A DNA stretch of 64,000 nt, from assembly GCF_055900595.2 (NCBI RefSeq), contig NZ_CM148325.1; one strand, written 5' to 3'. Under the pieces are notes generated by a model that was given only the letters and a program-made list of their open reading frames with translations, had not been told where the DNA came from and made no database searches. The translations under genes were made by a program, and so were the position numbers. Shown piece after piece: positions 9,366-15,038 of this stretch; within the stretch, counting starts at the first letter, position 1, and every line of letters starts with the position of its first letter.

Positions 9366-10559
9366 TCAAATCTGTCGTAACTGCGCCTCAACATACAAAT
9401 AGCCAATCCCCAGCACCTGCTGTGCGCGGCTTAATTGCCCAAAGCCAATTTGCGTCGATTTCACGCTCGGTCCTTCGTCACGGTCGAACGGGTTAAATCC
9501 TGTCTGGCGAATAATGGAATTAAGCCAGTTCTCACCAAAGGCGCAGCTGCGACCATACAGCCAAATCTGATTAATATTGAGGATGTTGAGGAAGTTATAC
9601 AGACTCAAACCAATGGCGTTGGCACTGCGGTCAACCCAGCTGGTGATCCACGGTTCTCCACTCTGCCAGGCAGCGATTAATTGTGCGGTTGTCAATTTTT
9701 CAGGATCAAGCTGAGTATTCACCGGTTGTGATTTTAGCCATACTCGCGCCTGTTTTTTTAATGCGCTTAACGAGGCGACGGTTTCCAGGCAGCCATAATG
9801 TCCGCAGTCGCAGACGACACCATCCGGATTAACGATGGTGTGACCAATCTGTCCGCTACCATACAAACTGCCGCGATAAATTTGCTCGTTAATCACGAAC
9901 GACGAGCCAATACCGTAATCAACGTTGATCACGCAGAAATCCCGTCCTTGCGAATTATTTTGCCATTTCTCCGCCAGCGCCAGCATCACGCAGTCATTAT
10001 CGACCATCACCCGAATGCCCAGCTTCTCTTCCAGCAGATACTTCACCTCAACCGGCGTTGTCCACGGCGCTTGCGGCATGGTTTGCGACACGCCAGTCAC
10101 TGGATCAACCTGACCGTGGATTGCCAGCGCCAGGTTGATAGTACGGTCCGGCCACAGTTTACGATGACGATGCCAGCATTTTTCGATTTCGGACAACAGA
10201 GCCTGCGGTGTCGGTGCATCAATCTGAAAATACTCAAATTCGCCTTTCGGACTTAAACAGGCATTAGCGACCTGACACTCAATGCTGGTGGGCGTCACGT
10301 TCAGGCACAGCGTCCAGTCACCTTCCGGCGCGATCAGCCATGTACCGCTACTGTGCCCGCGCGTCTGGCTTTCATCGTCGATATTCACCACCCGTTTTTC
10401 GCTTTCCAGCTCCTGCAAAATATTACTGACTGCCGGAATCGAAATTTGCGCCAGCCGGGCCAGCGTTGATTTATTGGCGCGCTTTTGCCGGTACAGCAGT
10501 TCCAGAATCACGCATTTGTTATGGTGGCGAATCTGTTGATTATTAATGCAGGCTCTCAT
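9366..10559 (-). CDS. yphH: ROK-family (NagC/Mlc-like) transcriptional regulator
   Basis: 397 aa from the ATG at 10559 (the GTG two codons upstream is an alternative); N-terminal HTH and ROK sugar-kinase-like fold with the CDCGHYGC zinc motif. Confidence 0.85.
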   Translation of the reverse strand: MRACINNQQIRHHNKCVILELLYRQKRANKSTLARLAQISIPAVSNILQELESEKRVVNIDDESQTRGHSSGTWLIAPEGDWTLCLNVTPTSIECQVANACLSPKGEFEYFQIDAPTPQALLSEIEKCWHRHRKLWPDRTINLALAIHGQVDPVTGVSQTMPQAPWTTPVEVKYLLEEKLGIRVMVDNDCVMLALAEKWQNNSQGRDFCVINVDYGIGSSFVINEQIYRGSLYGSGQIGHTIVNPDGVVCDCGHYGCLETVASLSALKKQARVWLKSQPVNTQLDPEKLTTAQLIAAWQSGEPWITSWVDRSANAIGLSLYNFLNILNINQIWLYGRSCAFGENWLNSIIRQTGFNPFDRDEGPSVKSTQIGFGQLSRAQQVLGIGYLYVEAQLRQI

Positions 10560-10676
10560 CTTCACTAAACCTTGTTTAGTTAATTGCGTGATTATTCCGC
10601 GAAAACATTGCCAGATTGTTCAATACACTGCCACAAATCTTTTAATTCAGTATGTCTTGTTAATATTGAGGGCACC

Positions 10677-13600
10677 ATGACTCCAGTAAAAGTGTGGCAA
10701 GAGCGCGTTGAGATCCCGACTTATGAAACAGGTCCGCAGGATATACACCCTATGTTCCTGGAAAATCGCGTTTATCAGGGATCGTCCGGTGCGGTTTATC
10801 CCTACGGCGTGACCGATACGCTGAGCGAGCAGAAAGTCCTGAAATCCTGGCAAGCGGTGTGGCTGGAAAACGACTATATCAAAGTGATGATCCTGCCGGA
10901 GTTGGGCGGTCGGGTGCATCGCGCTTGGGATAAAGTGAAACAGCGCGATTTTGTCTATCACAATGAAGTCATTAAACCGGCGCTGGTGGGGCTGCTGGGG
11001 CCGTGGATCTCTGGCGGGATTGAGTTTAACTGGCCACAACACCATCGCCCAACCACCTTTATGCCCGTCGATTTCACCATCGAAGCCCATGAAGACGGCG
11101 CACAAACTGTGTGGGTTGGCGAAACGGAGCCGATGCACGGTTTACAGGTGATGACCGGTTTCACACTACGCCCTGACAGGGCGGCGCTGGAGATTGCCAG
11201 CCGCGTCTATAACGGCAATGCCACGCCGCGTCATTTCTTGTGGTGGGCCAACCCGGCAGTGAAAGGTGGCGAAGGGCATCAGAGCGTTTTCCCGCCGGAT
11301 GTAACGGCGGTGTTTGATCACGGCAAACGGGCTGTTTCAGCTTTCCCTATCGCTACCGGCACTTACTACAAAGTGGACTACTCCGCCGGAGTGGATATTT
11401 CTCGCTATAAAAATGTGCCAGTGCCGACTTCGTATATGGCCGAAAAATCGCAGTACGATTTTGTTGGCGCATGGTGTCACGATGAAGATGGCGGTTTGCT
11501 ACACGTTGCCAACCACCACATCGCGCCAGGTAAAAAACAGTGGAGCTGGGGACACAGTGAATTCGGCCAGGCGTGGGATAAGAGCCTGACCGACAATAAC
11601 GGCCCGTATATCGAACTGATGACGGGTATTTTTGCCGATAACCAGCCCGATTTTACCTGGCTTGATGCTTACGAAGAGAAGCGTTTCGAGCAGTATTTCC
11701 TGCCTTATCATTCTCTGGGCATGGTGCAAAACGCCTCCCGCGATGCGGTGATTAAACTCCAGCGTAGCGAGCGGGGGATTGAGTGGGGGCTGTATGCCAT
11801 CTCCCCGTTGAAAGGATGCCGCCTGGCGATCCGCGAAATCGGCAAATGCAACGCGTTGCTCGACGATGCCGTGGCTCTGACGCCAGCGACCGCCATTCAG
11901 GGCGTGTTGCATGGTATCAATCCTGACAGACTAACCATTGAACTCTCCGATGCCGATGGCAATATCGTACTGAGTTATCAGGAACATCAGCCACAAGAGT
12001 TGCCGTTGCCGGACGTCGCCAAAGCGCCACTGGCAGCACAAGAGATTACCAGTACAGATGAAGCCTGGTTTATCGGTCAGCATCTGGAGCAATATCATCA
12101 TGCCAGCCGTTCCCCCTTCGATTACTACCTGCGCGGCGTGGCGCTGGACCCGCTGGATTATCGCTGTAACCTGGCGTTGGCGATGCTGGAATATAACCGC
12201 GCCGACTTCCCGCAAACGGTGGCGTATGCCACTCAGGCGCTAAAACGCGCACATGCGTTGAACAAAAACCCGCAGTGCGGACAGGCGAGTTTAATTCGCG
12301 CCAGTGCTTACGAACGTCAGGGGCAATATCAACAAGCCGAAGAGGATTTCTGGCGTGCGGTCTGGAGCGGAAACAGTAAAGCCGGTGGCTATTATGGTCT
12401 GGCACGGCTGGCGGCGCGTAATGGTCACTTCGACGCGGGTCTGGATTTTTGCCAACAAAGTCTTCGCGCCTGCCCAACCAATCAGGAAGTGCTTTGCCTG
12501 CATAACCTGCTGCTGGTGTTAAGTGGTCGTCAGGACAACGCGCGTTTGCAGCGAGAGAAGTTGCTGCGTGATTATCCGCTGAACGCCACTCTGTGGTGGC
12601 TGAACTGGTTCGATGGTTGTAGCGAATCTGCCCTCGTACAGTGGCGAGGTCTGTGTCAGGGACGCGACGTTAACGCTCTGATGACCGCCGGGCAACTGAT
12701 TAACTGGGGCATGCCCGCTCTGGCGGCAGAGATGCTGAACGCACTGGACTGTCAGCGCACGCTACCGCTTTACCTGCAAGCCAGTTTGCTGCCAAAAGCT
12801 GAACGCGGAGAACTGGTCGCAAAAGCTATTGATGTCTTCCCGCAGTTTGTCCGTTTCCCTAATACGCTGGAAGAAGTGGCGGCGCTGGAGAGTATCGAAG
12901 AGTGCTGGTTTGCCCGGCATTTACTGGCCTGTTTCTACTACAACAAACGCAGCTACGGCAAAGCAATTGCCTTATGGCAACGTTGCGTTGAGATGTCGCC
13001 GGAGTTTGCCGACGGATGGCGTGGGCTGGCAATCCATGCGTGGAATAAGCAGCATGATTATGAACTGGCTGCGCGTTATCTTGATAATGCTTATCAACTT
13101 GCGCCGCAGGATGCACGTTTGCTATTCGAACGGGATTTGCTGGATAAGTTAACCGGTGCTGCACCAGAAAAACGTCTGGCGCGTCTGGAAGCTAATCTGG
13201 AAATCGCCCTGAAGCGTGATGACATGACCGCAGAATTGCTCAATTTGTGGCATCTCACTGGTCAGGCCGACAAAGCGGCAGAGATTCTCGCCACGCGTAA
13301 ATTCCATCCGTGGGAAGGCGGAGAAGGGAAAGTCACCAGTCAGTTTATCCTCAACCAGTTGTTACGCGCCTGGCAATACCTTGATGCCAGACAACCGCAG
13401 CAGGCCAGCGAACTGCTTCATGCCGCGCTGCACTATCCGGAGAATTTAAGCGAAGGCCGTTTACCGGGGCAAACTGACAACGACATCTGGTTCTGGCAGG
13501 CGATATGTGCCAAAGCCCAGGGCGATGAAACTGCAGCGACGCGTTGTTTACGTCTGGCGGCGACGGGTGATCGCACCATTAACATCCACAGTTATTACAA

Positions 13601-13958
13601 CGATCAACCGGTTGATTATCTCTTCTGGCAAGGGATGGCGTTGCGATTACTGGGCGAACAACAAACCGCACAGCAACTGTTTAGTGAAATGAAACAGTGG
13701 GCGCAAGAGATGGCGAAAACCAGTATCGAAGCGGATTTCTTTGCCGTCTCGCAGCCTGACTTGTTGTCGCTGTATGGCGATTTACAACAGCAGCATAAAG
13801 AAAAATGCCTGATGGTGGCGATGCTGGCGGCCGCGGGATTAGGCGAGATTGCGCAATACGAATCTGCTCGCGCTGAATTGACGGCGATTAATCCGGCCTG
13901 GCCGAAAGCGGCATTACTCATCACCGTGATGCCTTTTATTTTTAGCTACGTTCACTAA
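10677..13958 (+). CDS. yphG: large cytoplasmic protein with TPR-like repeats (YphG family), function unknown
   Basis: 1093 aa from the ATG at 10677 with GAGGG ribosome-binding site; the ORF-track TTG at 10584 adds 31 residues with no support; no signal peptide; TPR-like helices in the C-terminal half. Confidence 0.85.
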   Translation: MTPVKVWQERVEIPTYETGPQDIHPMFLENRVYQGSSGAVYPYGVTDTLSEQKVLKSWQAVWLENDYIKVMILPELGGRVHRAWDKVKQRDFVYHNEVIKPALVGLLGPWISGGIEFNWPQHHRPTTFMPVDFTIEAHEDGAQTVWVGETEPMHGLQVMTGFTLRPDRAALEIASRVYNGNATPRHFLWWANPAVKGGEGHQSVFPPDVTAVFDHGKRAVSAFPIATGTYYKVDYSAGVDISRYKNVPVPTSYMAEKSQYDFVGAWCHDEDGGLLHVANHHIAPGKKQWSWGHSEFGQAWDKSLTDNNGPYIELMTGIFADNQPDFTWLDAYEEKRFEQYFLPYHSLGMVQNASRDAVIKLQRSERGIEWGLYAISPLKGCRLAIREIGKCNALLDDAVALTPATAIQGVLHGINPDRLTIELSDADGNIVLSYQEHQPQELPLPDVAKAPLAAQEITSTDEAWFIGQHLEQYHHASRSPFDYYLRGVALDPLDYRCNLALAMLEYNRADFPQTVAYATQALKRAHALNKNPQCGQASLIRASAYERQGQYQQAEEDFWRAVWSGNSKAGGYYGLARLAARNGHFDAGLDFCQQSLRACPTNQEVLCLHNLLLVLSGRQDNARLQREKLLRDYPLNATLWWLNWFDGCSESALVQWRGLCQGRDVNALMTAGQLINWGMPALAAEMLNALDCQRTLPLYLQASLLPKAERGELVAKAIDVFPQFVRFPNTLEEVAALESIEECWFARHLLACFYYNKRSYGKAIALWQRCVEMSPEFADGWRGLAIHAWNKQHDYELAARYLDNAYQLAPQDARLLFERDLLDKLTGAAPEKRLARLEANLEIALKRDDMTAELLNLWHLTGQADKAAEILATRKFHPWEGGEGKVTSQFILNQLLRAWQYLDARQPQQASELLHAALHYPENLSEGRLPGQTDNDIWFWQAICAKAQGDETAATRCLRLAATGDRTINIHSYYNDQPVDYLFWQGMALRLLGEQQTAQQLFSEMKQWAQEMAKTSIEADFFAVSQPDLLSLYGDLQQQHKEKCLMVAMLAAAGLGEIAQYESARAELTAINPAWPKAALLITVMPFIFSYVH

Positions 13959-14054
13959 ACACTATTAACTGTAATATTTGAGCGGCACGCGCTGCCGCTC
14001 ACGCTCAAATAATTAAAATAAGCCGTTGTAAATAAAAACCCTACAGGAGGCACT

Positions 14055-15038
14055 ATGCCTAAAAAAATGAGAACAACCCGTAATCTATTATTAATGGCTA
14101 CGCTATTAGGTAGCACACTATTTGCCAACGCTGCGGAAAAAGAAATGACCATTGGTGCAATATACCTTGATACCCAGGGATATTACGCTGGAGTGCGCCA
14201 GGGCGTTCAGGATGCGGCAAAAGATTCTTCAGTACAGGTACAGTTAATTGAAACTAACGCCCAGGGCGATATTTCGAAAGAAAGTACCTTTGTTGATACC
14301 CTCGTGGCGCGTAATGTCGATGCCATTATTTTGTCGGCAGTGTCTGAAAATGGCAGTAGCCGCACCGTTCGCCGCGCCAGTGAGGCGGGTATTCCGGTGA
14401 TTTGCTACAACACCTGTATTAATCAAAAGGGTGTCGATAAATATGTCTCGGCATATCTGGTTGGCGATCCGCTGGAATTTGGTAAAAAACTGGGTAACGC
14501 TGCCGCCGATTATTTTATTGCTAACAAAATTGACCAGCCGAAAATTGCTGTCATCAATTGCGAAGCCTTTGAAGTTTGTGTGCAACGACGTAAAGGGTTT
14601 GAAGAAGTATTAAAAGCCCGCGTTCCCGGCGCGAAAATTGTCGCTAATCAGGAAGGGACTGTTTTAGATAAAGCGATTTCTGTTGGTGAAAAACTGATTA
14701 TCTCCACGCCAGATCTCAATGCCATTATGGGGGAATCGGGTGGAGCGACACTCGGCGCGGTAAAAGCGGTACGTAATCAAAATCAGGCTGGAAAAATTGC
14801 CGTTTTCGGTTCGGATATGACCACTGAAATTGCACAGGAACTGGAAAATAACCAGGTGCTGAAAGCGGTAGTGGATATTTCCGGTAAGAAAATGGGCAAT
14901 GCTGTTTTCGCGCAAACATTGAAGGTTATCAATAAACAAGCCGACGGTGAAAAAGTGATTCAGGTGCCAATCGATCTCTATACCAAAACGGAAGACGGTA
15001 AACAGTGGCTGGCAACGCACGTTGATGGTCTGCCCTAA
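14055..15038 (+). CDS. yphF: ABC transporter periplasmic sugar-binding protein
   Basis: 327 aa; signal peptide; periplasmic-binding-protein type I fold; AGGAGG ribosome-binding site. Confidence 0.88.
   Translation: MPKKMRTTRNLLLMATLLGSTLFANAAEKEMTIGAIYLDTQGYYAGVRQGVQDAAKDSSVQVQLIETNAQGDISKESTFVDTLVARNVDAIILSAVSENGSSRTVRRASEAGIPVICYNTCINQKGVDKYVSAYLVGDPLEFGKKLGNAAADYFIANKIDQPKIAVINCEAFEVCVQRRKGFEEVLKARVPGAKIVANQEGTVLDKAISVGEKLIISTPDLNAIMGESGGATLGAVKAVRNQNQAGKIAVFGSDMTTEIAQELENNQVLKAVVDISGKKMGNAVFAQTLKVINKQADGEKVIQVPIDLYTKTEDGKQWLATHVDGLP

Follow-up and report, generated by a model that had tools for sequence, protein, structure and literature searches.

A conserved intercistronic hairpin in the yphG-yphF spacer of Escherichia coli and the putative internal promoter region around it

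What is a GC-rich inverted repeat doing between two genes that are read in the same direction, and does it act as a structure in the RNA or as a site on the DNA? The yph cluster of Escherichia coli raises this question in the 96-nt spacer that separates yphG from yphF. The cluster comprises genes for a ROK regulator, a DUF5107/TPR protein, an ABC sugar transporter, a dehydrogenase, and a mutarotase, and it belongs to those sugar-utilisation loci of E. coli that have yet to be characterised. The DNA considered here, called the window, is a stretch of 64 kb from E. coli, in which the yph genes were identified from their open reading frames and by BLAST. These are yphH, the ROK regulator gene, on the minus strand (9366-10559), yphG on the plus strand (10677-13958, with its TAA stop at 13956-13958), and yphF on the plus strand (14055-15038, with its ATG at 14055), followed on the 3' side by yphE, yphD, yphC, and yphB, all on the plus strand. 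The Shine-Dalgarno sequence of yphF, AGGAGG (14045-14050, plus strand), lies inside a conserved block, CCCTACAGGAGGCAC. The yphH protein has a ROK match along with a weak N-terminal MarR-type match that stays under the cut-off of Pfam, and the cluster has no gene for a second regulator. Regarding the locus at large, YphF appears in RefSeq under two differing product names, and positions 13800-14200 (401 bp) are 90-95% identical to 4,912 of 5,420 E. coli genomes and at least 99% identical to 8 only, a divergence that suggests deeply separated haplotypes around the yphG-yphF junction.

A sequence-only reading of this DNA had singled out tttgagcggcacgcgctgccgctcacgctcaaa as a nested palindrome with two alternative stems and no following T-run, and had proposed two roles for it: either an element for RNA processing or stability, by which yphG is uncoupled from the transporter genes, or a site bound by a protein. 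The sequence is found exactly at 13977-14009, between the yphG stop and the yphF ATG, and both pairings are present in it. The inner hairpin (13979-14001, plus strand), TGAGCGGCA-cgcgc-TGCCGCTCA, has a stem of 9 bp and a 5-nt loop; in this stem GAGCGGCA (13980-13987) pairs with TGCCGCTC (13993-14000), the pair T13979-A14001 extends it, and GAGCGGC/GCCGCTC forms its conserved core. The hairpin begins 21-22 nt past the yphG stop and folds at about -16 kcal/mol. Folding, which that reading had named as a check, gave -16.1 kcal/mol for a 43-nt segment (z = -3.3), and only 2 of 200 shuffles folded as well. The stem is followed by ACGCTCAAATAATT in the window and by ATCACAAAATAATT in K-12, neither of which is a U-tract, and a T-run is indeed missing on either strand. 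The terminator scan makes no call in E. coli, and it is positive in one of the three orthologues scanned (RIT691). An RNase E motif (AU/AUU just 5' of the stem) is present in E. coli and absent from other genera.

The 21-mer of the hairpin is single in the window, with 0 copies expected by chance, and the hairpin locus is found in exactly one place per genome in 5,411 E. coli genomes, which rules out a dispersed repeat. The MG1655 record has no repeat or other feature annotated in the yphG-yphF spacer, and an Rfam scan of 13500-14500 returned only two sub-threshold chance matches, one of them to osmY RNA on the minus strand (14.6 bits vs a gathering score of 46.9).

The two pairings differ in their standing. 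The outer stem, with its 5' arm TATTTGAGCG at 13975-13984 and its 3' arm CGCTCAAATA at 14002-14011 (both plus strand), has GAGCG in common with the inner hairpin and depends on a 5-nt patch, CGCTC (14002-14006), that is carried by ~29% of E. coli genomes. Where the window has CTCACGCTCAAAT, K-12, O157, and the majority of strains have CTCATCACAAAAT, so that the patch of K-12 is TCACA, a type carried by ~71% of the 5,411 genomes. A 51-nt search of these genomes gave a bimodal result, with 1,579 genomes at 95% identity to the window or above, 3,827 at 80-90%, and 4 between. Elsewhere in Escherichia, E69, E. whittamii, and SCPM-O-B-8794 carry TCACT at the patch, E. albertii carries TTGCC, and Escherichia sp. 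E1V33 shares the CGCTC of the window; the patch is absent in three of the four other Escherichia-lineage genomes examined and also in E. albertii. The K-12-like state is read as ancestral because the Escherichia outgroups carry TCACT or TTGCC. Across genera the outer pairing, and with it the nestedness that the earlier reading stressed, is not conserved and stays at the level of shuffles (62%).

The CGCTC patch is the exact reverse complement of GAGCG at 13980-13984, it leaves the spacer at 96 nt, and it turns a 5-bp TATTT/AAATA pairing into a perfect 10-bp pairing. In consequence of this derived patch the allele of the window is bistable, as its two folds are isoenergetic (-15.9 vs -16.1 kcal/mol; ~28% vs 71% at equilibrium), with the inner fold forming first during transcription, whereas in the K-12-type allele only the inner hairpin is possible. 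In quasi-palindrome template switching, known as the Ripley model, several bases are rewritten together as the exact complement of an arm close by. The CGCTC patch is probably best explained by a one-step event of this kind, and would then be a mutational by-product in a minority allele: the change is clustered and spans several bases, it is the complement of an arm, the length is unchanged, intermediates are missing (the 4 genomes between), and the outgroups give its polarity. As in Ripley-model mutations, an imperfect repeat has been made more perfect at constant length; the event is deduced from natural alleles only. Replacement by the adjacent direct repeat CGCTCA is an alternative origin with the same product, and it needs two events. 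If the template switch is the right account, the locus offers a clean natural example of such a mutation segregating at high frequency in a species.

The history of the inner stem is of another kind. Spacers were aligned first among E. coli lineages and then among 19 enterobacterial lineages that had been recovered via YphF. In these 19 lineages both arms are the best-conserved intergenic columns, and the 7-bp core is paired in 132 of the 133 cells of the alignment (A4), the remaining one being a mismatch. Between lineages the loop (5-7 nt) and the sequence 3' of the stem vary greatly, and the arms are spaced by N6 or N7 according to the lineage; the GCCGC of the 3' arm, directly beside the variable bases, is invariant in all 19. 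Where only one side of the core has changed, the result is G·U on the plus strand in 7 of 7 cells (4 + 2 + 1), namely C51>T in both Citrobacter, L072, and Cedecea, C46>T in Cedecea and L070, and C37>T in R. ornithinolytica, and no change of the mirror A·C type occurs among the 133 cells. This asymmetry goes back to only about three to four independent events. In addition, lineage L074 has a full G-C to A-U double change in a perfect stem of 11 bp, and UBA3516, Phytobacter, and Entomohabitans have a stem lengthened by C-G/G-C pairs. The covariation of the inner stem is not above that of shuffles because the stem hardly varies. What argues for a structure is thus its conservation together with the strand-asymmetric substitutions, not strong covariation.

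Other lineages have different arrangements. Upstream of yphF, at a nearby position, Ewingella and Rahnella carry a strong hairpin of another sequence that likewise lacks a U-tract, and the two genera differ in it by compensatory changes. Budvicia has the 5'-arm sequence TGTGAGCAGCATGATC at the homologous position, where its homologue of the 5' arm reads TGTGAGCAGCA, and it has no complementary 3' arm. In the short spacers of L013, L018/L073, L027, L030, and L071, the hairpin and the -10-like hexamer described below are jointly missing, a co-loss that speaks for the role that we propose for the hairpin; that several lineages do without it is counted against that role. In some genera short T-runs (GTTTTCG, TTTTCC, TTTCTTC) lie 3' of the hairpin. 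As a separate observation, the non-Escherichia spacers of L017, L019, L020, L025, L016, L012, and L014 are ~130-190 nt long and hold a second hairpin, variable in sequence, that lies ~60-110 nt past the yphG stop and between the TAGAAT hexamer and a conserved AAACAACAATAAATGCC...CCCTACAGGAGG block. This second hairpin is absent from Escherichia, and by eye its stems differ among genera.

Both earlier suggestions, an RNA element and a protein-binding site, have some indirect support, though not in the shape in which they were put forward. For the latter, it is the flanks more than the palindrome itself that resemble protein sites, through a second palindrome, a GTGA-type site, and a -10-like hexamer. 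The 21 nt that separate the yphG stop from the hairpin are conserved as well, and they proved to belong to this second palindrome. The palindrome called O1, TTCACTAAAC-CTT-GTTTAGTTAA (10561-10583), abuts the yphH start codon in the divergent yphH-yphG region and has a 14/14 core. Its only other match in the 64 kb is O2, TTCACTAAAC-ACT-ATTAACTGTA (13951-13973), a 23-bp putative second operator that overlaps the yphG stop and is a degenerate copy (11/14) of the perfect core ACTAAAC-N3-GTTTAGT. The palindrome is kept at both places across Enterobacterales. O1 is conserved at 12-14/14 in 11 of 11 yphH-yphG spacers from different genera. The orthologues of O2 score 13-14/14 in Ewingella, Rahnella, Serratia, L075, Budvicia, and L026, and 10-12/14 in those Enterobacteriaceae where the script located the site. 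In Serratia an MFS gene stands between yphG and yphF, and O2 remains upstream of yphF; in L075 the O2 module is again upstream of yphF, a sequence read as a terminator tail precedes it by ~150 nt, and the 356 nt of contig upstream contain no called yphG. It was also seen that the inserted sugar MFS gene of Serratia quinivorans (L069, 3422-4843) has its stop inside the left half of O2, where other genera have the stop of yphG.

NagC and Mlc sites are 23-bp quasi-palindromes in which TT/AA are invariant at positions ±5,6, and YphH has been described as an uncharacterised ROK repressor that belongs to a separate ROK branch (PMC4288165). Later papers continue to list YphH as a factor of unknown function. 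Like the NagC/Mlc operators, O1 and O2 are 23-bp quasi-palindromes beside a ROK gene, with two sites per locus; unlike them, O1 has TA at -6,-5 and TA at +5,+6, so that the format appears to be the same while the specificity would differ. The hairpin that O1 and O2 flank is itself not a NagC/Mlc-like site. O1 and O2 are candidate operators for the ROK repressor YphH, and, if this reading is right, the only E. coli ROK repressor without known targets gains a testable operator motif, ACTAAAC-N3-GTTTAGT, with two sites.

The resemblance between the two spacers extends beyond the palindromes. Both have the same layout with identical spacing: a palindrome, six bases, a (C/T)(G/T)TGA-N6-N5 site, and a TAnnnT hexamer. 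Upstream of yphG, these elements are the activator-like site CGTGA-TTATTC-CGCGA (10587-10602) and, 21 nt after it, the -10-like hexamer TACACT (10624-10629, plus strand, followed by GCC) of a putative yphG promoter. Upstream of yphF, the counterpart site is TTTGA-GCGGCA-CGCGC (13977-13992), which overlaps the 5' arm and the loop of the hairpin, and the -10-like hexamer of the putative promoter P_yphF is TAAAAT (14014-14019, plus strand; TAGAAT in K-12), which would place the start near 14026. In each case the centre of the activator-like site lies ~29-30 nt before the TAnnnT hexamer, which is the -41.5 geometry, and the spacing of palindrome, GTGA site, and hexamer is identical in both spacers and in two bacterial families. 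The hexamer of the putative yphG promoter reads TAnACT in 10 of 11 genera, with GCC after it in 9 of these. That of P_yphF, TAGAAT or TAAAAT at 13 nt past the 3' arm, is found in most Enterobacteriaceae lineages (roughly 14 of 19, counted from the alignments), and the Yersiniaceae have other TAnnnT forms upstream of yphF. The region 10587-10629 as a whole is conserved in 10-11 of 11 genera.

Since O2, the GTGA site, and the hexamer copy the layout of the yphG promoter, we infer an internal operator and a repressor-controlled promoter for yphFEDCB within the yphG-yphF spacer. The hexamer of P_yphF has A at position 2 and T at position 6, as a sigma-70 -10 does. A -35 hexamer is absent at 16-18 bp from it, where GCTGCC stands, and a sigma-70 consensus scan made no plus-strand promoter call in E. 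coli and three other genera; a missing -35 with an activator-type geometry is consistent with the failure of full-consensus scans. On this map the inverted repeat would span about -46 to -26 of the yphF promoter.

Class II promoters of the CRP type have their activator site at about -41.5. The yph layout is like them in having a GTGA-type half-site in a 16-bp site at -41.5, no -35, and sugar genes downstream; it is unlike CRP sites in that the right half-site does not match TCACA and that the left half in E. coli is TTTGA. The likeness of the GTGA site to a CRP site is best taken as a geometric resemblance. A proteomics paper reports that, on a non-PTS sugar, the level of YphF goes up along with those of XylF, MalE, MglA, and YtfQ (PMC8753852), and this co-rise with CRP-regulon transporters fits catabolite-sensitive expression, as weak evidence. 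Two other identities for the palindrome were considered and rejected: a sigma-54 promoter (GGCAC...TGC in the loop), for which the spacing, judged by eye, is out by 2 and the loop shows no conservation, and a LacI-family operator (TGAGCG...CGCTCA), whose halves are 17 nt apart in a cluster that has no LacI-family gene.

Intercistronic stabilising hairpins, such as the REP/BIME sequences of malE-malF and the hairpins of the puf and pap operons, block 3' exonucleases and give unequal gene expression. The yph hairpin is like them in being stable, in lacking a U-tract, and in lying between co-directional cistrons, with an AU-rich single-stranded tract after it. It differs from REP/BIME in being present as a single copy, with no REP annotation in MG1655 and, judged by eye only, no resemblance to the REP consensus, and it differs from the whole malE-malF/puf/pap group in overlapping promoter-like DNA elements and in that its effect on the mRNA is a prediction from sequence. 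The comparison with intrinsic terminators is a mixed one. The hairpin shares with them a GC-rich stem-loop of 7-9 bp with a loop of 5-7 nt, ~20 nt after a stop codon, and some orthologues have short T-runs, with one passing a simple terminator scan; unlike terminators, it has no U-tract in Escherichia or in most genera, and its flanks are U-rich on the 5' side and A-rich on the 3' side, the reverse of a terminator. We infer an intercistronic hairpin of known kind that lies within a repressor-controlled internal promoter region.

The role that we propose for it, tentatively and as something a little short of probable, is that the hairpin, inside this internal operator and promoter region, sets the 3' boundary of the yphG message and shields the message there. 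O2, the activator site at ~-41.5 that overlaps the 5' arm, and the TAAAAT -10 would form an internal yphFEDCB promoter that copies the yphG promoter. The hairpin would lie upstream of the yphF start and, because of this position, would be transcribed only in read-through RNA from the yphG promoter, where it would form a barrier of ~-16 kcal/mol 21-22 nt after the yphG stop. The AU-rich tract downstream may be cleaved, after which the hairpin would block 3'-to-5' exonucleases on the yphG message; it could perhaps also act as a weak or decayed terminator. In this way yphG would be expressed as one unit and the transporter genes, from a promoter of their own, as another, and the earlier idea that the element uncouples yphG from the transporter genes fits such an internal promoter.

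This proposal would also make sense of how the stem has evolved. The 5' arm falls on the GA of the TTGA half-site and on its spacer, and would be under a double constraint, as a DNA site and as an RNA arm. The stem would then be nearly invariant, and would not covary, because both constraints hold the 5' arm in place and the 3' arm has to match it. As Budvicia has a homologue of the 5' arm without the 3' arm, the 5' arm appears to be the older, DNA-constrained part, and the 3' arm appears to be an addition of the Enterobacteriaceae obliged to match it. The nested outer stem would be no selected feature, only a derived allele left by a single template switch. A more specific version holds that the 21-bp sequence is used twice, as the DNA activator site and -35 region of a YphH-controlled promoter and as the RNA hairpin that ends the yphG message, and that the bistable allele of ~29% of genomes could alter the yphG:yphF ratio between strains; we regard this version as decidedly doubtful.

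How far can the same observations be explained otherwise? By compensatory changes an RNA hairpin cannot be told from a DNA site with dyad symmetry, and it is conceivable, if unlikely, that the inverted repeat is such a site for a regulator of the internal yphF promoter, with the RNA hairpin incidental. The arms stand at rigid distances from O2 (6 + 3 nt) and from the -10-like hexamer (13 nt), the same across genera, which suggests a DNA-level constraint; moreover, the stem is conserved in sequence and not in pairing alone, it is a palindrome within a region of other protein-site-like elements, and double changes such as that of L074 keep the dyad symmetry as well. A regulator site would, however, have to tolerate half-sites spaced by either N6 or N7 and a stem whose length depends on the lineage, from 7 to 11 or more bp, and it would not account for one-sided changes that are all G·U on one strand and never A·C, for the hairpin of unrelated sequence that the Yersiniaceae use instead, or for the 5'-arm sequence of Budvicia without a 3' arm; nor does the cluster encode a second regulator. 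The G·U-only changes, the stem extensions, the N6/N7 loop variation, and the unrelated hairpin of Ewingella and Rahnella favour an RNA role. Unlikely too is a functionless remnant in E. coli of an intrinsic terminator of yphG, whose 5' arm is kept by the overlap with the promoter and whose 3' arm is kept or regenerated by quasi-palindrome mutational bias. Template switching appears to act at the locus, the hairpin has been deleted several times, and the short T-runs after the orthologues of some genera, with RIT691 passing the terminator scan, can be set beside the loss of the T-run in Escherichia; but an invariant GCCGC in the 3' arm beside highly variable bases is hard to explain without selection, and most genera lack a T-run, so that a canonical terminator may never have existed.

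The other readings are less probable still. A transcript of yphF that starts near 13980, from a promoter over O2 (TGTAAT, 13970-13975), would carry the hairpin as its 5'-terminal stem-loop and as a stabiliser of the transporter mRNA. A hairpin at the very 5' end with an AU-rich leader behind it is a layout known to stabilise messages, as in the ompA 5' hairpin, and T(G/T)TAAT follows the palindrome in most lineages. This account is improbable, since TGTAAT/TTTAAT lacks the key A at position 2 of a -10, no -35 lies at a workable distance, and a much better hexamer (TAGAAT/TAAAAT) stands farther downstream, with the offset that is also seen in the yphG promoter; the Cappable-seq tables, where the locus is probably silent, record no start site for it. 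The isoenergetic folds of the window allele (-15.9 vs -16.1 kcal/mol, with a 28% to 71% split) could in principle be a two-state RNA switch, which we consider highly improbable, as the second state is restricted to the derived allele and is not conserved across genera, and neither state touches the Shine-Dalgarno sequence or a U-tract. Least credible of all is that the conserved bases are coding, either as a 17-codon in-frame read-through extension of YphG or as a 65-aa antisense ORF (13955-14152). The variable columns from the stop to the hairpin fall mostly on every third base, and both frames are open in Escherichia, but the same palindrome is present in clearly non-coding DNA (the yphH-yphG spacer and L075), the YphG extension is closed after 2 codons in L074 and varies widely in length and sequence, and the antisense ORF has lost its ATG in G749 and cannot persist where the spacer length changes. 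This ORF, on the minus strand, runs antisense to the yphF start and to the entire spacer; several Escherichia species keep it open, and we judge it to be a by-product of the conserved sense features.

Published transcript maps were searched for the locus. The supplementary tables of Adams 2021 (Term-seq) and of TRS have no 3'-end entry for yphG, yphF, or coordinates 26794xx, and those of Cappable-seq and SMRT-Cappable-seq have no start site at the locus; in both the locus or operon is probably silent under the conditions used, in the latter case in the media employed. The most likely cause of this gap is that the cluster is silent in laboratory media, and it is read as an absence of data and not as a refutation. 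If the preferred reading, a protective hairpin inside an internal promoter region, is right, the cluster is split by that promoter into yphG and yphFEDCB and gains a defined RNA boundary element, a useful annotation that brings no surprise and leaves general principles unchanged.

Two minor observations concern the end of yphG. Within its final 16 codons there is a terminator-like hairpin with TTTTATTTTT (13910-13943), which is weak (-9.6 to -13.4 kcal/mol) and whose T-run, in the codons for MPFIF, is Escherichia-specific, other genera encoding MPFVL without a T-run. In E. coli P276M (L005, NZ_CP044293.1, positions 1-1600), yphG is in pseudogene fragments and yphF is frameshifted; the sequence directly 5' of the hairpin is strongly diverged and shortened, and the hairpin and all of the sequence 3' of it are intact.
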